Shown here one piece after another: positions 1,615 to 50,423 of a DNA stretch of 64,000 nucleotides. The position numbers were made by a program, and so were the translations under genes. The notes beneath the pieces are model-generated. The model saw only the letters and a program-made list of their open reading frames with translations, ran no database searches and was not told the DNA's origin. The stretch is from Promethearchaeota archaeon (GTDB taxonomy: Archaea > Asgardarchaeota > Lokiarchaeia > Sigyniarchaeales > SOKP01), in assembly GCA_048937405.1 (NCBI GenBank), contig JBHLNF010000015.1, positions 661 through 64,660 on the forward strand, written 5' to 3'. Numbering within the stretch: position 1 is the first letter of the stretch; the number at the start of each line of letters is the position of its first letter.

Positions 1615-3024
1615 TTAAATTCTTTTTTCTGCTTTTTTCATTTTTTTTTGAATTAATGAATATAAATTTGTAATAAAATCTTTTAAATCATCAGATTCAA
1701 TACAAATTCCTAATTTTGTTGTTAATAAGGGGGGGATATCATTTTCATTTTCAAAAATTGGAATAATTTTCTTTTTCATTTTATGAGCAGCCATCCATTC
1801 AGTTCTTACTGCTTCTGATTTATTAGCATTTTCAGAACAAAAAACTAATACAACATCTGCTAATGCTAAATTATCATTCATATAAACATAGATATCATCA
1901 TCCATGTATTCCTCCCAATATAATACGGCTCCAATTTCTGGATAAGAGCGACTTAATAATTTTGCAATTTTCGGTATTTGAAATTTTTCAGAATCTAAAG
2001 TGGCATAACTTATGAATACAGTTAACTTTTTTTGAGGTTTAGCTTTTATTTTATTATGTTCTTCTTTAGAATTCAATGCGGATGATATATCCATGTATTC
2101 TTCAAGAAAATCCCAAACTCTTATTATTCCATTAAAATCACCTGAAACAACAAGATGAGAATTTGGTATAAATTTTACACATTGAACATAAGTATCATGT
2201 GGAAATGGTCCATATTTATATCCATCATTAAAATTCCAGACAATTAATGATTTATCACCAGATCCAGAGGCAATATATTGTCTATCATCCGATAAAGCTA
2301 CAGAATTAATTGATCCTTTATGTCCTTCAAAAGTATTTATTAACTCTTTAGATTCTAAATTCCAAATTTTTATCAATTTATCATATGATCCAGAAACTAA
2401 ATAATCCCCTTTTGACCCTATCGCAATCGATCTAATTGGAAAATTATGCCCTTCAAGAGAAAATGCTGGTTCTTTAGTACCCCATTTCCAAATTTTAATA
2501 CTTTTTTCTCCACTTGTTGCTATAAATTTACCGTCTGGAGTGATATCGACTGAATTAATACTATATTCATGACCTTCTAGTGATCTTAGTAATTTTTTAT
2601 TGAACCAATTCCATATTTTTGCTGTTTTATCTTCTGAAATACTTATTATATATTTATCATTCGGAGTAATTAGGGTTCCGAAAATTGCCCCTTTATGTCC
2701 GGTAAAGTTTCTCAGTAAATTTCCTGTTTCTAATTTCCATAGTTTTACTGTTTTATCTTCAGAACCAGTTACTATTCTGCTTCCATCAGAACTAATGTTT
2801 ACTGAGGTTACTTCTAGTTCATGACCTTCTAATATCTGAAATGAATTTCCGGATTCGAGCTCCCAAACTTTTACTGTTTTGTCTGCTGATCCAGTTATAA
2901 TGTATTTCCTATCAGGTGATATTGATAGTGAATAGATTGCATAATCATGAGGTTTAAATTCTTTCAATAAACCTTTGATTCTTGGTGTATCCTCATCTGA
3001 AATACTATAATTAAGTTGCTCCAT
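1615..3024 (-). CDS. WD40-repeat protein (about 7 blades) with a C-terminal TIR-like domain
   Basis: Repeated GH...x...D.T.K(I/V/L)W units, e.g. TGSADKTVKVWEL, TGSEDKTVKLWKL, SISEDKTAKIWNW, SGSYDKLIKIWNL, SGSGDKSLIVWNF, GDFNGIIRVWDF. The C-terminal ~135 aa read KKLTVFISYATLDSEKF...ADVVLVFCSENANKSEAVRTEWMAA...IIPIF. This fits the TIR_2 pattern: FISY start, a hydrophobic strand + S, then S-x-W/V-x2-E. Confidence 0.7.
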   Translation of the reverse strand: MEQLNYSISDEDTPRIKGLLKEFKPHDYAIYSLSISPDRKYIITGSADKTVKVWELESGNSFQILEGHELEVTSVNISSDGSRIVTGSEDKTVKLWKLETGNLLRNFTGHKGAIFGTLITPNDKYIISISEDKTAKIWNWFNKKLLRSLEGHEYSINSVDITPDGKFIATSGEKSIKIWKWGTKEPAFSLEGHNFPIRSIAIGSKGDYLVSGSYDKLIKIWNLESKELINTFEGHKGSINSVALSDDRQYIASGSGDKSLIVWNFNDGYKYGPFPHDTYVQCVKFIPNSHLVVSGDFNGIIRVWDFLEEYMDISSALNSKEEHNKIKAKPQKKLTVFISYATLDSEKFQIPKIAKLLSRSYPEIGAVLYWEEYMDDDIYVYMNDNLALADVVLVFCSENANKSEAVRTEWMAAHKMKKKIIPIFENENDIPPLLTTKLGICIESDDLKDFITNLYSLIQKKMKKAEKRI

Positions 3025-3047
3025 TTTAAATTCTATTTTGTATTTAT

Positions 3048-4631
3048 TTAAAAATTATATCTTTTTTGTGTTTCAGGTAAAATTATCTTTCCTGATAATC
3101 CAAACTCTTCGAACGTTTCCGGATGTTCTGTATGGATTGGAATTATATTATCAGCGTCAATTTTTTGAAGCGCATCTATTAAATCATCCACATTACAGTG
3201 TCCTGAAGAATGAATCGTTTCAGTTTTCAAAATTCCAAATCTTTCTAACCATGCGTTTAATTTTTCTTCTTGTAAAGTCATTTCTTCCGTAAATGGGTCT
3301 GTTGTAGAATTTATATATATAACCGTATTAGGATCTTGATTTAAATCGATTAATTGCCCCAGCATATAGTAATCTAAGTATATAAGATATCTATCAGGGT
3401 CCATTTGTATATCTTTATAAGTAATATAATCAAAATTTTCAAAAATTATTTTTTCATAAGTTTTATAATCTTGTGTTTCATATTTACCCCAACCTTTACG
3501 TGGTAAATATATTTTAAAATATTCATCATCAAACTTTGGAAAATTATAATCAGAGTAAAATTCCTGAATTACTTTTTCTTCCATATTATCAAGTCTTGAT
3601 CTAAAACTATCAATTAAAAGGAAGTTTTTAGGGGTTATTGTAAAAATTCGATCATATTTTCTAGCTAAATCATAATAGAGTAGAATTCTATCTAGATTTC
3701 TTGTTGGAAAATTAACAATTAACAGACCAGGATGCCTACGAATGAGATCTCTAGAACGCATTTCGACATCTTGTTCTGTTTGATCATTACTTCTATATAC
3801 CCCACTACGAAACTCTTCTACAGAAGGAACTCTGGTTCCTTCGGTGATTATTGATATAGGATTAGAGTTATGAGCGTATTCTATAAATTTATTGATCCAT
3901 TCACTATGAAATCCATGTCTTCTAAAATCTCCTGTATATATGATGCTCCTTCCGTTATTTTCTATAATATAAGCACATGCTCCAGGTATGGAATGATCGA
4001 CAGTATATTGAGTTATATTTATATTACCATTAGAAGTTTTGAAAGTATATGGTTTTTCAGTGTCCATAATCTTTATGTTTCTTTTTATTTCCTTGTGGGT
4101 ATAATCATTCTTATTAGCCCGTTTGTATTCAATCTCTCCTTCCTTTTTTTGCCTTTTTTTTGGAACAAGTTTAAATATCTCATAAAAGTTTAAAATTTCT
4201 GGAATTAAATAATCATTAGTGGTATTTGATAAATATTCTAGAATTGAATTTGTTATCCAATTCATATAAATAGGAACATGTTGTTTAAGAAATCCTAAGA
4301 ACTTATAGTGATCTATATGAGCATGTGATAAAAAAGCCGCTTCAATTATGCTACTATCAGAATTCACAATTTTATATGGTTCTTTTTTTAAGAGATCTTC
4401 AAATGGAGCGACTAAATCTTTTCTATAGAGTCCACTTATAGGAGGAATTAATCCTAAATATAAGTAATCGATGATTCCATTAAACCTACGTGGACTAAGG
4501 AATTCTGAAAAATATTGATTACTTTCATTGAAGGACAGACCAAAATCAAAGAGAAATTTTTTATTCCCTACAGTAATAAAGATCTTATTTCCCCCAATTT
4601 CACTCACTCCACCAAATATTTCAATTTCCAT
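3048..4631 (-). CDS. Metallo-beta-lactamase / beta-CASP ribonuclease (RNase J-like)
   Basis: 527 aa. N-terminus GGVSEIGGNKIFI. HxHxDH motif in FLSHAHIDHYKF. YTGDFRRHG resembles beta-CASP motif. HSSGHCNVDDL is the C-terminal His motif. Confidence 0.7.
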   Translation of the reverse strand: MEIEIFGGVSEIGGNKIFITVGNKKFLFDFGLSFNESNQYFSEFLSPRRFNGIIDYLYLGLIPPISGLYRKDLVAPFEDLLKKEPYKIVNSDSSIIEAAFLSHAHIDHYKFLGFLKQHVPIYMNWITNSILEYLSNTTNDYLIPEILNFYEIFKLVPKKRQKKEGEIEYKRANKNDYTHKEIKRNIKIMDTEKPYTFKTSNGNINITQYTVDHSIPGACAYIIENNGRSIIYTGDFRRHGFHSEWINKFIEYAHNSNPISIITEGTRVPSVEEFRSGVYRSNDQTEQDVEMRSRDLIRRHPGLLIVNFPTRNLDRILLYYDLARKYDRIFTITPKNFLLIDSFRSRLDNMEEKVIQEFYSDYNFPKFDDEYFKIYLPRKGWGKYETQDYKTYEKIIFENFDYITYKDIQMDPDRYLIYLDYYMLGQLIDLNQDPNTVIYINSTTDPFTEEMTLQEEKLNAWLERFGILKTETIHSSGHCNVDDLIDALQKIDADNIIPIHTEHPETFEEFGLSGKIILPETQKRYNF

Positions 4632-8203: not shown

Positions 8204-9013
8204 ATGGAAGGAATAAGAATTATAAAAAATGCAAATTTGGAGGAAAAAGATTTTATAAGACCTATTTGTATAATAGGAATGCCAGGGATAGCTGATGTTG
8301 GGAAATTTGCTTTGGATTCTCTTATTGGTCAATTAGGTGCTCAAAATTTAATAGATATTATTTTTGATGATTACCCTGCCGGAGCTATCGTAGATGATAG
8401 TCTCTTAACTGCTCCTAAAGCTGAAATCTTATATTGGAAGGATCCAAATGAACTACGAGATATACTATTAATTACTGCTGATGCCCAGAGTCTTTCACCG
8501 AAAGGGATTTACAAGATATCTAATTTCCTGACTGAAAAAATTCATCAATATGGCATAAAACTAATCATAGCTTTAGGGGCTTATCCTGTAAACACTAGAA
8601 AACTCTCCTCAAAGCTTCCTAAAATCTATCTTAGCTCAACTAATCGAGAGTTATTAGAACATTACTTAGTAGAAAATAATTGTGAGAAGATTCAGAAAGG
8701 AGTAATAATCGGAGCAAATGGTTTAATTCCAACATTAGCAAAAGCAAGGTTTAATATTGATGGTCTGGTTTTTCTCGCAGAAACAGACAATATTGCCATG
8801 ATTAATGAAGATATTACCGATCTTAAAGCTTCAATTACTCTTTTAGAAATGCTTAAAAAATCCTTTACCTTGCCAATAAAGAAGAAATATTCACTGGAGA
8901 GTATTGAAGACCTTACAAAAAATCTACAAATTAAAAGAGATCAACTAGAAAAAGATCTTGATACAATCCAGCTTGTTGATACTGATGATAAACGAAAATC
9001 ATTATATATCTGA
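8204..9013 (+). CDS. PAC2-family protein (proteasome assembly chaperone 2-like)
   Basis: 269 aa. ICIIGMPGIADVGKFALDSLI resembles the PAC2 N-terminal motif. Length and the coiled C-terminal tail fit the archaeal PAC2 family. Confidence 0.6.
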   Translation: MEGIRIIKNANLEEKDFIRPICIIGMPGIADVGKFALDSLIGQLGAQNLIDIIFDDYPAGAIVDDSLLTAPKAEILYWKDPNELRDILLITADAQSLSPKGIYKISNFLTEKIHQYGIKLIIALGAYPVNTRKLSSKLPKIYLSSTNRELLEHYLVENNCEKIQKGVIIGANGLIPTLAKARFNIDGLVFLAETDNIAMINEDITDLKASITLLEMLKKSFTLPIKKKYSLESIEDLTKNLQIKRDQLEKDLDTIQLVDTDDKRKSLYI

Positions 9014-29542: not shown

Positions 29543-29616
29543 GGGAGAGTGGCTTAGCCTGGTATAGCGCACGGCTGATAACCGTGAGGTCGGGGGTTCA
29601 AAGCCCCCCTTTCCCA
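29543..29616 (+). tRNA. tRNA-Ile (GAU), intronless
   Basis: - Acceptor: GGGAGAG / CTTTCCC (one G-U) + A73.
- Anticodon arm: CACGG CTGATAA CCGTG.
- Variable loop: AGGTC.
- T-arm: GGGGG TTCAAAG CCCCC. Confidence 0.9.
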
Positions 29617-29849
29617 CTATTCTGGTATATATGTTGTATATATCATCCCTATATTTTTTTACGTTTCACCTTCTTAAAGGTAAATAAATCGTTTCCATAA
29701 TAAAAGGAAATATTACGTTAAAAAATCCTAATCCAAAATGCCGAGATCATATTCCTAAATATCATTAATGGTATAGTTAGATTCTTGGAGATTAATAGAA
29801 AATAGGTTTTGAAAAAAAAATTTGTTTCTTTCTTTTTTTAATAAAAAAA

Positions 29850-31597: not shown

Positions 31598-33244
31598 ATG
31601 AATTATGAAGTTATAGATATCGACGCTCTAGGCAGAATTGGTAAACTAGAAGTTAATAATAAGCAAATGGTCACCCCTAATCTTTTTCCTGTTGTACACC
31701 CCTTTAAAAATGTAATTCCGCCCTCAGAATTAAAAAATTTCGGAGCCCAAGCTGTTTTTACAAATGCTTATATCCTTTTTCAAAATGAAACTGTAAAAAA
31801 TGATGTGCTAAAGAAGAAGCTTCATCAATTTCTTGATTTTGATGGTCTTATTGCCACAGATAGTGGAGCTTTTCAGCAATATATGTATAGTACTTCTGAT
31901 ATGAAGATTAAACCAGAAGAAATCGAAAGGTTTCAGGAAAATATAGGATCAGATTTCCCGGTTATCCTTGACATTCCTGTTCAGCCAGATGACGCATATG
32001 AAGTAGCAAACAATAAAGTAAATACTACAATTGAAAGAGCACGAGAGAATATCAAAAGAAGAACTAATCAAATCTGTGTTTGGTTCGGACCAATTCATGG
32101 CGGTAAATACCAAGACCTTTTAAAAAGATGTATTAATGAAATGAATAAATTAGATTTTGGTGTCTATGCAATTGGGGGATTAGTAAAATCCTTTCTTGAT
32201 TATAGGTTTGACATTGCTATTCAAACTTTATTGAATGTGAAAAAAAGCATAAATCCTGCTAAACCACTACATATGTTTGGATTAGGTTTACCTCAATTTT
32301 TTTCTTTAGCTGTCGCATGTGGTTGCGATTTAATGGATTCTGCAGCCTATATTTTATATGCTAATGAGAATAGGTATTTTACATTGTCTACTGGTACTAA
32401 AAATCTTGAGGATTTAGAAGAATTTCCATGTCACTGTCCGATTTGCACAAAATTTAGTCCTAATGAGCTTAAGAAATATGAGGATAATTTACGAATCAAA
32501 CTATTGGCGGAACATAACCTATATATTTCTTTCTCTGAGCTAAAAACAATTAGACAAGCTATAAGAGAGGGTAATTTATGGGAACTGGTTGATCAACGTA
32601 TAAAAGCACACCCAAATTTGGTCAGAGCAGCTCATATTTTAAAGAAAGAATTTCCAACGTTTGAATGGTATGAAAAAATCTATAAGAAAACTGGGCGAAT
32701 GTTTGTTTCTTCTGAGAATATCCATAGGCCTTTGATTAAAAGATATGAGAAAAGGATTAGTAATAATTACCGGGTCCCAAAAGAAGCAAAATTTTTAATT
32801 ATTTTACCAGAATTAGATGCTAGAGGTCAAAATTCTCCTACTATTCAAAATTGGCTTGAAGAAATAAATGAGAATACAATAATTCCTCGGAAAGATTTAC
32901 ATATTGTTTTTAATTCTTTGTTTTTTGGAATAATACCTCTTGAATTAATAAATACATATCCTTTAGGGCAATTTGAATCTATAACAATTTTAGATGAGAA
33001 TGATGATCTTTATAAGAATTCAATAAAAAAATCATCTCATTTTATTAATCAATTTTATCAAAATTATATTAAATGCGGTGTTCTAATCCCTGAGAATTAT
33101 ATAAATCAATTTAATGAAACGGTAGAATTTTGTCTTATAAATTCAATTCGAGGATTAGATCCTGTTTTGAAATCTAAATTTCAATCCAATTATTCTGGAT
33201 TTACTGATTTAACTGATTTGCTTCAATTCTTTAAAGATGAATAA
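31598..33244 (+). CDS. tgtA: Archaeosine tRNA-guanine transglycosylase (ArcTGT). It appears to lack a C-terminal PUA domain.
   Basis: 548 aa. DALGRIGKLEV..VTPNLFPVV, ATDSGAFQ, AIGGLV, LHMFGLGLP and the zinc site CHCPIC...H. Confidence 0.85.
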   Translation: MNYEVIDIDALGRIGKLEVNNKQMVTPNLFPVVHPFKNVIPPSELKNFGAQAVFTNAYILFQNETVKNDVLKKKLHQFLDFDGLIATDSGAFQQYMYSTSDMKIKPEEIERFQENIGSDFPVILDIPVQPDDAYEVANNKVNTTIERARENIKRRTNQICVWFGPIHGGKYQDLLKRCINEMNKLDFGVYAIGGLVKSFLDYRFDIAIQTLLNVKKSINPAKPLHMFGLGLPQFFSLAVACGCDLMDSAAYILYANENRYFTLSTGTKNLEDLEEFPCHCPICTKFSPNELKKYEDNLRIKLLAEHNLYISFSELKTIRQAIREGNLWELVDQRIKAHPNLVRAAHILKKEFPTFEWYEKIYKKTGRMFVSSENIHRPLIKRYEKRISNNYRVPKEAKFLIILPELDARGQNSPTIQNWLEEINENTIIPRKDLHIVFNSLFFGIIPLELINTYPLGQFESITILDENDDLYKNSIKKSSHFINQFYQNYIKCGVLIPENYINQFNETVEFCLINSIRGLDPVLKSKFQSNYSGFTDLTDLLQFFKDE

Positions 33245-34821: not shown

Positions 34822-34824
34822 GAA

Positions 34825-34899
34825 CGGACCTAGCAGGATTCGAACCTGCGACTTTCGGATTAGAAGTCCGACGCCCTATCCAGGCTAGGCTATAGGTCC
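34825..34899 (-). tRNA. tRNA-Arg (UCU), intronless
   Basis: Minus strand reads GGACCTA TA GCCT AGCCTGGAT AGGG C GTCGG/ TCGGA CTTCTAA TCCGA AAGTC GCAGG TTCGAAT CCTGC TAGGTCC G. Confidence 0.9.
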
Positions 34900-35012
34900 A
34901 TTGTTTCCACATAATATATCTTATACTTATAAAAATATTTTATATAATGTTTAAATTTTATGACCTTACAAATTATGTAGGAATTTAAATAGAGAATAAC
35001 AGACTATTTTTT

Positions 35013-46744: not shown

Positions 46745-48577
46745 CTATTTTGGAATGTAATAATACTCATTTATTCTTTTTTGATAAATATCCTTATTAC
46801 TTCCTAATTTATTTACACGAGGTCTTTTAGTTGTAGGATCTCTCCTAAATGTTATTTCCATCATTCTGAGAAATGAATTAAATCCATCTCTTAAATTCTG
46901 AGGAGGATTTGCTTTACCTTCTAACCCTGGGATCCCTTCAAAAACTAATATAGAATCAGCTATAAAATCTTGTGTTATAATGTCATGTTCCACTACGAAA
47001 CTGGATTTTTTCAATTCTTCAATAGATTTTCTTATCAGCTGGGCTACTTGTAGTCTCATCTCAACATCTAAAAATGCTGAAGGCTCATCTAATAAATAGA
47101 TATCAGCGTCCTCTGAAAGACAAATAGCAATGGCTACTCTTTGCAATTCTCCTCCACTCAACTCGGAGAAATTACGTTCTCTTATATTCTCTAGGTTTAG
47201 ATTATTTATCAATCTCTTTTTATAGGAAGGACTAAGATGAGGTGATAATTTTATTTGAGTTATAAGATCAGAAACAGAATTATCATTATTAATTTTAATA
47301 TATTGAGATTTTACTGAAACCCTTAATTTTTGGGCATTATCTTCACGATATTCCTCTATTTTTTCATCAGAAACTTTATTTTCTGCATTAATTGCTCCTG
47401 CTATTGAATTAATAAAGGTAGTTTTACCGATTCCATTAGGTCCTAAAATTCCTATAATTTCACCAGCATGAAGTTCACTCCCAGAACCAGTTAAATGAAA
47501 ATTCCCCATAGAAGTATCAATATCTTCATATGTATAAGTAACGTCTCCAGAATCAAATAATGATTCTTGAGGTGGACGTTCATGGAATATGATAGGCGTT
47601 TCTCTGAATCGGACATTTTCATCTTTAATATATCCATTTAAATATATATTGATTCCAACTCTAACACCTTGGGGGTGAGAAATGATTCCATAGACACCAG
47701 GTTGACCATATAAAATCGATACATAATCACTTAGATAATCTAAAATTGCTAAATCATGTTCTACAACAATTACCGTTTTATCCTTTTCTGATAAAGTACG
47801 GATTAATTTAGCCATATTAATACGTTCACTCACATCTAAATAAGAACTTGGTTCGTCAAATAGATATATATCTCCATTTTTGAGATAAGCAGCAGCAATC
47901 GCCACTCTTTGTAATTCTCCTCCAGATAATACCTCAATCTCTCTATCCAAGATTTCTGAGAGATTTAAATTTTCTGAAATCTGATCTAGTTGTCCTTCAA
48001 TGTCGTTTTTATTTAATAGATCGTTAACTTTTCCAGCTACAAATTTTGGTATCCTAGTAATATCTTGAGGTTTATGAATAATCTTGCTATTTCCCTTTTT
48101 CAATTCAATAAAGTATTGATGTAATTCAGAACCTTTAAAATACTCGATAATTTCTTTCCAGTTAGGTGATTCATCTTCAAATTTTCCAAAATTTATAGTT
48201 AGTTCATTAGATAATATTTTTAACAATGTACTTTTACCTATTCCATTTTGACCTATTATCCCAAGTACTTTTCCTTTTTTAGGAATCGCCATACGAAATA
48301 ATGAGAATTGATCTTGACCATATCGATATGTTATTTGATTCTCTAATGGATCTGGTAAATTTACGATAGTAATGGCATTAAAAGGACATTTTTTAACACA
48401 AATACCTTCACCAGAACATAAACTTTCTGTAATTATTACATTTTTCTCGTCTGGACTTAACACGATAGTTTTATCTCCTGTTCTCACCCTAGGACAATAT
48501 TTTATACATGGTTTTTCTCCAAAAGGACTACATTTATCAGGTTTACAAAAATCCTTATTTAAAACAGCAATCCTCAT
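46745..48577 (-). CDS. ABCE1 / RNase L inhibitor (ribosome recycling ATPase)
   Basis: 610 aa. N-terminal 4Fe-4S ferredoxin motifs (CKPDKCSPFGEKPCIKYCP, CSGEGICVKKCPFNAI). Two ABC cassettes (GQNGIGKST / LSGGELQR / LFDEPSS and GPNGIGKTT / LSGGELQR / LLDEPSA). Confidence 0.92.
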   Translation of the reverse strand: MRIAVLNKDFCKPDKCSPFGEKPCIKYCPRVRTGDKTIVLSPDEKNVIITESLCSGEGICVKKCPFNAITIVNLPDPLENQITYRYGQDQFSLFRMAIPKKGKVLGIIGQNGIGKSTLLKILSNELTINFGKFEDESPNWKEIIEYFKGSELHQYFIELKKGNSKIIHKPQDITRIPKFVAGKVNDLLNKNDIEGQLDQISENLNLSEILDREIEVLSGGELQRVAIAAAYLKNGDIYLFDEPSSYLDVSERINMAKLIRTLSEKDKTVIVVEHDLAILDYLSDYVSILYGQPGVYGIISHPQGVRVGINIYLNGYIKDENVRFRETPIIFHERPPQESLFDSGDVTYTYEDIDTSMGNFHLTGSGSELHAGEIIGILGPNGIGKTTFINSIAGAINAENKVSDEKIEEYREDNAQKLRVSVKSQYIKINNDNSVSDLITQIKLSPHLSPSYKKRLINNLNLENIRERNFSELSGGELQRVAIAICLSEDADIYLLDEPSAFLDVEMRLQVAQLIRKSIEELKKSSFVVEHDIITQDFIADSILVFEGIPGLEGKANPPQNLRDGFNSFLRMMEITFRRDPTTKRPRVNKLGSNKDIYQKRINEYYYIPK

Positions 48578-48716: not shown

Positions 48717-50423
48717 ATGAGTAATAATTTTCCAGTTCATTGGTTAGAAGAAATAGTTAAGGAAATTTTGTCACGTAAACCTAAAGAAATTACGCTTTCT
48801 ACTGGTAAAACTCCTTCAGGGCATATTCATTTAGGAATTTTACGTGAAATTATAATTTGTGATGCATTACGAAGAATATTCGAGGATAAAGGTAAAAAGG
48901 TTAATAATTTATTATTCTTTGATAGTTTGGATGCAGCTAAAAGGTTTCCTGGATATATTCCTAAAAGTTTTCAAAAAATTCATTTAGGAAAGCCATTTTC
49001 AATGATACCATGTCCATATGAAGATTGCAATTGTGAAAGTTATGCTCACCATTTTGGTAATGAACTAATAGAAGTATTACCTCAATTTGGAATTCAGATA
49101 ACTATAATTTGGACTCATGAGTTATATAAAAAAAAAAAAATGCAAGAAAAAATAAAAATTGCTCTTGAAAAAACTGATAAAATTAAAGAAATCTTGAGGA
49201 AATATATTATTCCTACTTTAAGAGAAGAAGATAAGGAGGAATTCATAGAAATGCAAAAAGATTGGATGCCAGTAATGGTGATTTGTGAGAAATGTGATAG
49301 AATTCAACATCGCAGTATTGATGGATCTATAAAACCAAATAGAGTTAAAAAATATATAGGAAATAAAGAGATCGTCTCATATGTATGTCAAGCTTGTGGG
49401 TATTCCGGAAACCTTTCGATTTGGAGCGGAAGATTGAAATTAAATTGGCGTGTAGATTGGCCTGCAAAATGGGCTTTATATGAAACCACTTGTGAACCTG
49501 CAGGTAAAGATCATAGTGTCAAAGGTGGTGCTTATGATACAGGAATTGAATTATGTCAAGAATTATATAATTATGTTGGACCAGTTAAAGTGCCTTATGA
49601 ATGGCTAAGATTAGGTGAACAAGACATGGGAACTTCAAAAGGTCATATATTTACACCAAAAAATTACTTAGAAATGGCTGATCCTGAAATTTATCGAACA
49701 ATAATTTTAAGAACTAATCCATTAAAACATATTACTTTTAGAATTGAAGAAATTTCCCAGTATTATGACTATTATGAAAGAATGGAAAACATTTATTATA
49801 AATTGGAGAAAACAGAAAACTCTGAGGAGAATAAGATTTTTAATTATCTATATCCCTTAACTCAGATATCTAAGATATCTGAGGTAAAAACGAAAAGATT
49901 ACCTGTAAAACTTTTAACTTTTTTAACACAACTTAAAAATATTCTCAGTATTGATAAGCTCTACCAGAAAGCAAAAATGTTTATGGAAAAAAACAAATTT
50001 AAAAAAATAATTACAAAAAATGAATTCGAAATACTCATCAACCAAACACAAAATTGGCTAGAAGAAGTAAACAAAATATTAGAAAATGAAAAGGATCCAA
50101 AAGTTAAGAGGGAAATAATACAAAAGGTAGAAATCTTTACAATCCCAAATGAAATTGATAATAATTTTGTGAAAAATATGAATGAAAAACAAGTTGAAGG
50201 AATAAGATTACTTAAAGATTATTTAGAGAAAACTGATTTCTTAGATGCTGATTCTATTCAAAATAAGATTTTTAATATTGCTAAAAATGATCTAAAAATT
50301 CCTCCAAGAAAATTATTTGAAACACTTTATCAAATTATCCTAAGTAAAAAGAATGGTCCTCGAATGGGACCATTTTTATCTATGTTAGATAAAGAGTGGT
50401 TATTGAAGAGAATCAGTATATAA
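48717..50423 (+). CDS. Lysyl-tRNA synthetase, class I
   Basis: 568 aa. TPSGHIHLGILREI (HIGH-type), cysteine cluster CEKCDR...CQACG, GKDH, and a KMSKS-like MGTSKG. Confidence 0.85.
   Translation: MSNNFPVHWLEEIVKEILSRKPKEITLSTGKTPSGHIHLGILREIIICDALRRIFEDKGKKVNNLLFFDSLDAAKRFPGYIPKSFQKIHLGKPFSMIPCPYEDCNCESYAHHFGNELIEVLPQFGIQITIIWTHELYKKKKMQEKIKIALEKTDKIKEILRKYIIPTLREEDKEEFIEMQKDWMPVMVICEKCDRIQHRSIDGSIKPNRVKKYIGNKEIVSYVCQACGYSGNLSIWSGRLKLNWRVDWPAKWALYETTCEPAGKDHSVKGGAYDTGIELCQELYNYVGPVKVPYEWLRLGEQDMGTSKGHIFTPKNYLEMADPEIYRTIILRTNPLKHITFRIEEISQYYDYYERMENIYYKLEKTENSEENKIFNYLYPLTQISKISEVKTKRLPVKLLTFLTQLKNILSIDKLYQKAKMFMEKNKFKKIITKNEFEILINQTQNWLEEVNKILENEKDPKVKREIIQKVEIFTIPNEIDNNFVKNMNEKQVEGIRLLKDYLEKTDFLDADSIQNKIFNIAKNDLKIPPRKLFETLYQIILSKKNGPRMGPFLSMLDKEWLLKRISI

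Follow-up and report, generated by a model that had tools for sequence, protein, structure and literature searches.

A WD40 propeller protein of Lokiarchaeia with a C-terminal TIR domain and a predicted catalytic glutamate

TIR-NBD-repeat receptors of the STAND class (NBD, nucleotide-binding domain) join a TIR effector to a repeat-type sensor composed of WD40, LRR or TPR repeats (PMC9153377). In enzymatic TIRs, the BB loop of one domain inserts into the neighbouring TIR and completes its active site, and head-to-tail TIR assembly with NAD+ cleavage is established for SPARTA, SARM1 and AbTir (10.1101/2023.09.23.559129). The NADase of SPARTA is switched on by oligomerisation via a fused or associated sensor. 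In bacteria, one SEFIR protein confers protection from phage phi29 (10.1101/2022.05.11.491447). Here, a gene with likenesses to each of these systems was analysed in a 64,000-nt stretch of DNA (the window) from a Promethearchaeota archaeon of the class Lokiarchaeia (GenBank assembly GCA_048937405.1, contig JBHLNF010000015.1, positions 661 to 64,660). The gene encodes a WD40 beta-propeller followed by a C-terminal TIR domain and is referred to as WD40-TIR (Table 1). An annotation made beforehand from the sequence alone (the first-pass annotation) had proposed this architecture, and the position, the (-) strand and the length of 469 aa were confirmed exactly. WD40-TIR is not a member of the STAND/Avs/TNL, Thoeris, bSEFIR or SPARTA systems; by analogy, it would work most like the oligomerisation-gated TIR enzymes.

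Pfam detected WD40 repeats in seven stretches of the protein (E = 1.1e-73), and a full-length AlphaFold2 model built from an alignment of 17 orthologues (pLDDT 88, pTM 0.81) placed 28 beta-strands in the repeat region, corresponding to seven blades of four strands each. Foldseek matched this region to the solved seven-bladed WD40 structures 7big, 5yzv and 2ymu with a root-mean-square deviation of 1.3-1.5 Å. In the model, the WD repeats close into a seven-bladed propeller, and the earlier estimate of about seven blades (nt ~2110..2952) required only a slight adjustment of its borders. Propeller and TIR are separated only by a linker of 29 aa, the presence of which had also been noted before; it is poorly conserved, and its residues 321-330 are disordered in the model (pLDDT <50). 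Searches with Pfam, NCBIfam and PADLOC identified no NTPase family in the protein, consistent with the previous description of a propeller joined to a TIR without an intervening NTPase. Nothing in the sequence is hydrophobic enough to count as a membrane helix, indicating that the protein is cytosolic. NCBIfam returned zero matches for either the whole protein or the TIR part alone, and the PADLOC matches were partial and confined to single domains (bSEFIR, 4.8e-8; ThsB, 2.7e-4; HEAT-ARM_XIII over the WD40 part), so the gene does not represent a recognised system.

Plant TNLs, bacterial TIR-STAND/Avs-like proteins and TIR-NB-ARC-WD40 proteins likewise pair a repeat-type sensor and a TIR effector in one chain; however, WD40-TIR has no NTPase oligomerisation module, contains a single propeller within its 469 aa, and displays the reverse order, with the sensor at the N-terminus and the TIR at the C-terminus. 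Bacterial proteins that join TIR and WD40 without an NTPase were also found (P0122 from Bacteroidales and P0113 from Symploca), but these are non-orthologous, carry an N-terminal TIR of the canonical 'SxWCxxE' type, and have a transmembrane segment or coiled coil between the two domains. A second Lokiarchaeial family (P0025, P0040, P0044 and possibly L020) shares the phylum and the domain order with WD40-TIR and has a TIR of a related subfamily (motifs YWQxxMxDNI, IPPLLKSRLG and KEW). However, these proteins of ~600-780+ aa possess at least two propellers and a helical insert of ~170 aa (judged by eye), and they are paralogues whose similarity is confined to the WD40 region (30-36% identity).

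The TIR part opens with LTVFISYATLDSEKF and includes VVLVFCSENANKSEAVRTEWMAA. When the last 151 aa were scanned alone, Pfam assigned them to TIR_2 (E = 1.1e-11; 45.7 bits vs a gathering cut-off of 28) and to ThsB_TIR (26 bits vs a cut-off of 21.2); the Pfam SEFIR model gave nothing at E<=1 on the protein. The TIR_2-like region of ~135 aa that had been proposed at nt ~1618..2028 was thus recovered with slightly narrower borders. An AlphaFold2 model of the TIR alone (pLDDT 88.5) consists of alternating strands and helices in the flavodoxin-like arrangement typical of TIRs, and its best Foldseek matches in the PDB are almost all TIRs (probability 1.00, TM-score 0.57-0.67), including SPARTA TIR-APAZ, Hydra TRR-2, ThsB, SARM1, RPS4, BtpA, AbTir and MyD88. 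A non-TIR flavodoxin-like fold, which had been named as the alternative to the original assignment, was therefore not borne out. The DNPH1/nucleoside deoxyribosyltransferase fold, which ranks below the TIRs, was considered as a rival identity and rejected, because it is a known distant relative of the TIR fold and because the TIR_2 match lies above the curated cut-off. A profile of 24 TIRs of the subfamily (alignment A3) was also searched against PDB sequences with HMMER, and the best match, across the whole domain, was the bacterial SEFIR 5y8e (E = 1.1e-5), followed by the TIR-TPR protein 9m0n and then by BabSPARTA TIR-APAZ. By profile and by fold, the C-terminal domain is a TIR of the TIR_2 type with SEFIR-like affinities.

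These matches also separate WD40-TIR from the systems in which its nearest solved relatives occur. SPARTA TIR-APAZ leads the structural matches (8oz6, query TM-score 0.65; 8i88, 0.67); however, identity is only ~22%, WD40-TIR has no APAZ and no Argonaute gene among its neighbours, and its sensor, a WD40 propeller, lies N-terminal to the TIR. The bacterial SEFIR protein BcSEFIR (5y8e), the best sequence-profile match among solved structures, belongs to the STIR superfamily as does WD40-TIR, but the bSEFIR defence protein carries an N-terminal SEFIR and another C-terminal region, whereas the domain is C-terminal in WD40-TIR and covers only positions 38-185 of the 412 positions of the bSEFIR model. 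Lastly, the ThsB_TIR model scores above its cut-off and ThsB structures are among the fold matches, but no ThsA-type gene (SIR2/SLOG or Macro) is present near WD40-TIR, and ThsB has no WD40 fusion.

Candidate counterparts of residues characteristic of enzymatic TIRs were identified by alignment and conservation. In the HMMER alignments, Glu409, which lies in the triplet TEW, is aligned to the Glu of 'SEWVKKE' in 9m0n and to that of 'VLKE' in BabSPARTA TIR-APAZ. We take the SPARTA 'VLKE' to contain the E77 position. The E77A exchange in the MapSPARTA TIR yields a catalytic-dead mutant (10.1101/2023.09.23.559129). Glu409 is retained in 17/17 orthologues, in 24/24 subfamily TIRs and in ~99% of 147 representatives, and it is predicted to be the catalytic-type glutamate of enzymatic TIRs, in agreement with the position given to the Glu of TEW in the first-pass annotation. 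The motif WEEYMDDDI aligns to the SPARTA sequence 'DKG..ADFW', which is the BB loop of TIR-APAZ (Asp40-Trp46), and W370, E371, E372, M374, D376, D377 and I378 are invariant among the orthologues. This loop is the lowest-confidence part of the TIR in the full-length model and is therefore probably flexible. The sequence FCS at the end of strand beta-C is likewise invariant in the orthologues, as is the signature IPPLLTTKLG, which is also near-invariant in the other architectures of the subfamily.

In a search of 5.8 billion proteins, full-length orthologues were recovered as 17 clusters; they measure 465-473 aa and show 45-81% identity. The named orthologues all come from metagenome-assembled genomes (MAGs) of Promethearchaeota/Lokiarchaeota, as expected from the Asgard-like genome that had been suggested, and are labelled 'TIR domain-containing protein' at NCBI; the recurrence of the shared architecture in 17 full-length orthologues rules out chance or an assembly artefact. 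When each GTDB species was represented by a single genome, another nine copies, complete or truncated, were detected, all in uncultured Asgard MAGs. In the orthologue alignment, the TIR reaches a mean pairwise identity of 66.5%, compared with 56% in the propeller and 34% in the linker. WD40-TIR is a 1:1 orthologous family of Lokiarchaeia with vertical, single-copy-like inheritance. Truncated copies are present on two Hermodarchaeota-labelled contigs (L014, JBHLLI010000031.1; L026, JBHLLE010000094.1); they share ~70% identity with the window protein, a value that Promethearchaeota orthologues also show, and could reflect mis-binning or recent transfer.

Our preferred interpretation, which is tentative and to which we assign a probability of roughly 45%, is that WD40-TIR is a propeller-gated, NAD+-cleaving sensor-effector for stress or conflict (immune-like) that operates without a STAND NTPase and is now a fixed chromosomal gene. 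In such a mechanism, the propeller would serve as a binding platform for a partner or trigger, and occupation or clustering of the propellers would allow the TIRs to assemble head to tail. The BB loop WEEYMDDDI of one TIR would then enter the pocket of the next, forming a composite active site around Glu409 that may cleave the nicotinamide-ribose bond of NAD+, and the outcome would be either depletion of NAD+ or an ADP-ribose-derived signal. This interpretation is supported by the alignment of Glu409 to the catalytic column and by the invariance of Glu409 and of the BB loop; the Glu of this column is not known to be retained in TIRs with a scaffolding function, for example those of MyD88 and the TLRs. 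It is further supported by the fact that the related PADLOC models (bSEFIR and ThsB) describe defence proteins, and by the higher conservation of the TIR relative to the propeller.

Several observations, however, weigh against a propeller-gated NADase of this kind. In SARM1, AbTir and plant TIRs, a Trp sits four residues before the catalytic Glu, whereas this residue is Ala405 in WD40-TIR; of note, the aligned SPARTA and SEFIR sequences are likewise without a Trp at this position, indicating that the Trp is not universal. AbTir W204 is discussed in PMC10937652. The seven blades are evenly conserved (0.61-0.76), so that a sensor surface under diversification is not apparent, and the gene diverges together with an adjacent gene for an RNase J-like metallo-beta-lactamase (MBL), as described below. 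The neighbours in the window, namely a pyridoxal phosphate-dependent decarboxylase, the MBL and a GT4 glycosyltransferase, form a housekeeping context, and the flanks elsewhere contain cobalamin, redox and lipid genes and are of the housekeeping type in 7 genomes. No credible PADLOC matches were obtained near the gene, a scan of viral contigs gave zero relatives, and viral or mobile copies were not found. WD40-TIR is accordingly not a defence-island gene, given its housekeeping flanks, its vertical co-divergence and the zero viral copies, and the Avs-like defence role implied by the first-pass annotation finds no support in the gene's context. The housekeeping context, the vertical inheritance and the even conservation of the blades argue in particular against a classical mobile abortive-infection gene.

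Table 1. Coordinates of WD40-TIR, its domains and motifs, further features of the window, and genes for related TIR proteins at other loci (window positions unless a locus is named)
Feature	Position	Strand	Basis or remark
WD40-TIR gene, 469 aa, ATG start	1615..3024	(-)	Stop codon 1615-1617; open reading frame (ORF) list and 17 orthologues
Seven-bladed WD40 beta-propeller, aa 19-304	2113..2970	(-)	Pfam WD40, AlphaFold2 model, Foldseek
Inter-domain linker, aa 305-333	2026..2112	(-)	Variable, partly disordered (AlphaFold2 model, alignment)
TIR domain, aa 334-463	1636..2025	(-)	Pfam, AlphaFold2 TIR-only model, Foldseek
BB-loop motif WEEYMDDDI, aa 370-378	1891..1917	(-)	Conservation and alignment to SPARTA
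Glu409 codon, predicted catalytic Glu, helix alpha-C	1798..1800	(-)	Alignment, conservation
Subfamily signature IPPLLTTKLG, aa 430-439, following strand beta-D	1708..1737	(-)	Conservation
AT-rich 23-nt spacer between MBL gene and WD40-TIR start codon	3025..3047	(-)	Sequence
RNase J-like MBL, 527 aa, MBL fold and RMMBL	3048..4631	(-)	Pfam, PDB sequence matches
PAC2 proteasome-assembly-like protein	8204..9013		
RPA-like multi-OB protein	18935..20659		
ORF, 883 aa	22799..25450	(-)	Without Pfam match at E<=1e-5
ORF, 672 aa	25527..27545	(-)	Without Pfam match at E<=1e-5
tRNA-Ile(GAT)	29543..29617		
Archaeosine-type tRNA-guanine transglycosylase (TGT)	31598..33244		
tRNA-Arg(TCT)	34824..34900		
ORF, 1203 aa	37087..40698	(-)	Without Pfam match at E<=1e-5
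ABCE1/RLI	46745..48577		
Class I lysyl-tRNA synthetase (LysRS)	48717..50423		
Giant receptor-TIR gene	L019 2863-7077		
Giant receptor-TIR gene	L024 1594-7089		
Giant receptor-TIR genes	L022 2-4219 and 4215-8483		Tandem
Further giant receptor-TIRs	L017; L023; proteins P0250, P0253		
244-aa TIR protein, Candidatus (Ca.) Uabimicrobium chromosomes	L018 5995-6729; L021 5995-6723		

The window as a whole is core chromosome (Table 1), and the one constant feature of the neighbourhood is the MBL gene, which lies directly upstream of WD40-TIR on the same strand in 11 of the 13 loci with enough sequence, while the other neighbours all differ. The paired loci are the window, L001, L002/L010, L004, L006, L007, L008, L011, L012, L013 and L030, and the spacer between the two genes measures 23-63 nt in nine genomes. 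In Pfam, the MBL protein matches Lactamase_B_2 (40.2 bits) and RMMBL, an 'RNA specificity' domain (22.4 bits); its HxHxDH motif is intact, and its PDB sequence matches are RNase J2 and EF2904 (2az4), the latter being uncharacterised and the closest solved relative. Moreover, the pairwise identities of WD40-TIR and of the MBL are correlated across nine genomes (r = 0.96). These data raise an alternative in which the two proteins would share an RNA-linked role: the TIR might deNAMe, that is, remove nicotinamide from, NAD-capped RNA 5' ends, or might mark or sense RNA, while the propeller would serve as the docking site for either the nuclease or a complex of RNA and protein, and the pair would take part in 5'-end-dependent RNA turnover or surveillance. 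There is precedent for such chemistry, as nicotinamide is removed from NAD-RNA by TIR proteins, among them TcpA of archaea, in a manner dependent on the catalytic Glu (PMC10937652), and NAD- and ADP-ribose-capped RNAs are reported to exist in archaea (PMC10663502).

However, the MBL looks like a member of an uncharacterised, widely conserved archaeal ribonuclease family with a distribution of its own. It occurs in Hodarchaeota- and Hermodarchaeota-labelled MAGs and in other Promethearchaeota, with 50-86% identity across Asgard lineages and ~34% identity to Methanobacterium proteins, and it is present without a WD40-TIR partner in L027-L029; the WD40-TIR lineages L005 and L031, conversely, are not beside an MBL gene. 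Since the MBL family is far wider than the WD40-TIR family, WD40-TIR is an addition specific to one clade, placed downstream of a gene that is widely conserved. Paired and unpaired MBLs are equal in length, so no partner-specific module is visible, and the co-divergence would also follow from plain vertical inheritance. In addition, a TATA-like element, TTTTAAATAAATA (window 3042..3054), precedes WD40-TIR, overlapping the MBL stop codon ~25 nt upstream of the ATG; this element could drive a leaderless transcript of its own or could be a chance occurrence in a genome of ~27% G+C. The sequencing runs in which the locus was found are sediment DNA metagenomes only, with no RNA run among them. Altogether, we consider an RNA-linked role unlikely. 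A further idea, in which the MBL acts as the effector of a TIR-produced signal, was ranked low because the family is wider than its TIR partner and because its length is the same with or without that partner.

To place the TIR of WD40-TIR among its relatives, a TIR-only profile was searched against 1.84 billion representatives. At E<=1e-3 it retrieved 1596 proteins, and at E<=1e-30 the subfamily amounts to 324 representative clusters, with taxonomy assigned for almost none of the clusters. Among the best 147 proteins (P0248-P0394, alignment A5), the TIR is C-terminal behind another region in 83, N-terminal in 34, in the middle in 10 and in tandem in ~10, and the Glu-Trp pair is ~99% conserved. 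TIR_2 was matched by every one of the 114 members examined with Pfam, and their partner domains include LRR (12), PCI (8), Roc/Ras/Arf GTPases (7), TPR (4) and WD40 (2). The same TIR is also found in an Asgard TIR-LRR protein; a fusion to SMC_N was observed as well, and P0248 consists of four tandem TIRs. The occurrence of one TIR module on LRR, TPR, WD40, Roc GTPase and ectodomain-transmembrane partners is the pattern that an effector or output module in common use would show, and it speaks for the sensor-effector interpretation. Because sensor-TIR fusions without an NTPase are common, WD40-TIR is not uniquely minimal, and the description 'unusually minimal' could not be maintained: in this subfamily, LRR, TPR, Roc/Ras, PCI and transmembrane receptor domains are likewise joined to the TIR with no NTPase, bacterial TIR-transmembrane-WD40 proteins exist, and the orthologues already carry a TIR label. 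Of the overall interpretation offered by the first-pass annotation, the TIR, the alignment-based placement of its Glu, the lack of an NTPase and the Asgard origin thus stood, but the unusual minimality and the implied defence role were not supported.

The subfamily also includes giant single-pass membrane proteins of Asgard archaea (~900-1830 aa), the TIR of which is 50-57% identical to that of the window. These proteins are ordered as a signal peptide, a NosD/beta-helix region, a ligand-binding ectodomain (Peripla_BP_6, ANF_receptor or SBP_bac_5), a transmembrane segment followed by the basic stretch RRKKRR, the TIR, and a ~230-aa domain of unassigned family, a topology that is Toll-like-receptor-like. 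Some of these receptor-TIRs are encoded by tandem duplicated genes. Their presence in related Asgard genomes, with ligand-binding ectodomains and cytoplasmic TIRs, bears on a further alternative, according to which WD40-TIR would be a non-enzymatic scaffold or adaptor that acts through homotypic TIR-TIR assembly or through partner binding via the IPPLLTTKLG surface, while the propeller recruits other proteins as in animal TLR/MyD88 or IL-17R/Act1 SEFIR signalling. Extremely conserved motifs are common to the cytosolic and the membrane-receptor TIRs, the best PDB sequence match is to a SEFIR of bacteria, and SEFIR was originally reported as a fold for protein interaction, and the Trp four residues before Glu409 is absent, all of which would suit a scaffold. 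However, the catalytic-column Glu is ~99% conserved in the subfamily, and such conservation is, to our knowledge, unusual for purely scaffolding TIRs. In addition, 0 MAGs among 21 genome loci carry both WD40-TIR and a receptor-TIR, a count that is limited by MAG incompleteness, and the specific candidate of an adaptor pairing with receptor-TIRs in one cell was ranked low on this basis. A scaffold is therefore, in our estimation, quite unlikely.

In a broader scheme, which we hold to be just as doubtful as the scaffold, Asgard archaea would possess a large, hitherto undescribed TIR network for signalling or immunity, in which one Glu-bearing module is coupled to sensors and switches that resemble those of eukaryotes (WD40, LRR, TPR, Roc/Ras, PCI and single-pass receptors with ligand-binding ectodomains). 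WD40-TIR would be its most stably inherited cytosolic member and would act with the RNase J-like nuclease in an RNA-surveillance or antiviral pathway, where, for instance, deNAMing of NAD-RNA would license 5'-end-dependent decay. Least probable, and in our view very unlikely, is a mobile, Avs-like minimal abortive-infection gene spread by horizontal transfer, in which the propeller would sense a viral protein and the TIR would kill through NAD+ depletion: the combination of sensor repeats with a TIR, the matches to defence-protein models, and at least one apparent inter-domain transfer of the TIR subfamily, to the planctomycete Ca. Uabimicrobium, are in keeping with it, but there is no defence island in the window or in the compared flanks, the pattern is strictly vertical with a fixed length, zero copies were found on viral contigs, and the propeller is evenly conserved.

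With respect to previous work, the class of 'repeat sensor plus TIR' is known already (PMC9153377), as is the generic TIR label on the orthologues. Searches of the available paper library that combined Asgard or Lokiarchaeota with TIR, or TIR with WD40, found nothing specific, and in a survey of Asgard defence, TIR appears only inside system names. The defined Lokiarchaeial WD40-TIR family, with its mostly stable pairing with an RNase J-like gene, is new, as is its membership in a large Asgard TIR subfamily of which no description was found in the papers searched. The family represents a sensor-TIR design without an NTPase that has become fixed in the chromosome, where it is passed on vertically next to the gene for an RNA-degrading enzyme. 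Should the TIR prove active, this small, soluble protein of 469 aa with two well-predicted domains would offer a model of the gating of TIR assembly by nothing more than a repeat sensor; should it be inactive, or serve housekeeping only, WD40-TIR would be an ordinary lineage-specific domain fusion. WD40-TIR also leads to a larger Asgard TIR repertoire with receptor-like transmembrane proteins, and this repertoire bears on the origin of eukaryotic TIR signalling architectures.

The putative transfer beyond the Asgard archaea concerns a 244-aa protein that consists of a TIR and a C-terminal domain of ~110 aa and unassigned family, and is 52-57% identical to the TIR of the window. This protein is encoded in two Ca. 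Uabimicrobium species (planctomycetes) as well as in Asgard MAGs (P0003, P0005 and P0249), a distribution that looks like inter-domain transfer. In both Uabimicrobium species, the gene adjoins those for an NAD kinase, a metallophosphoesterase and a member of the PRK/uridine-kinase family, which is possibly an NAD-related context.

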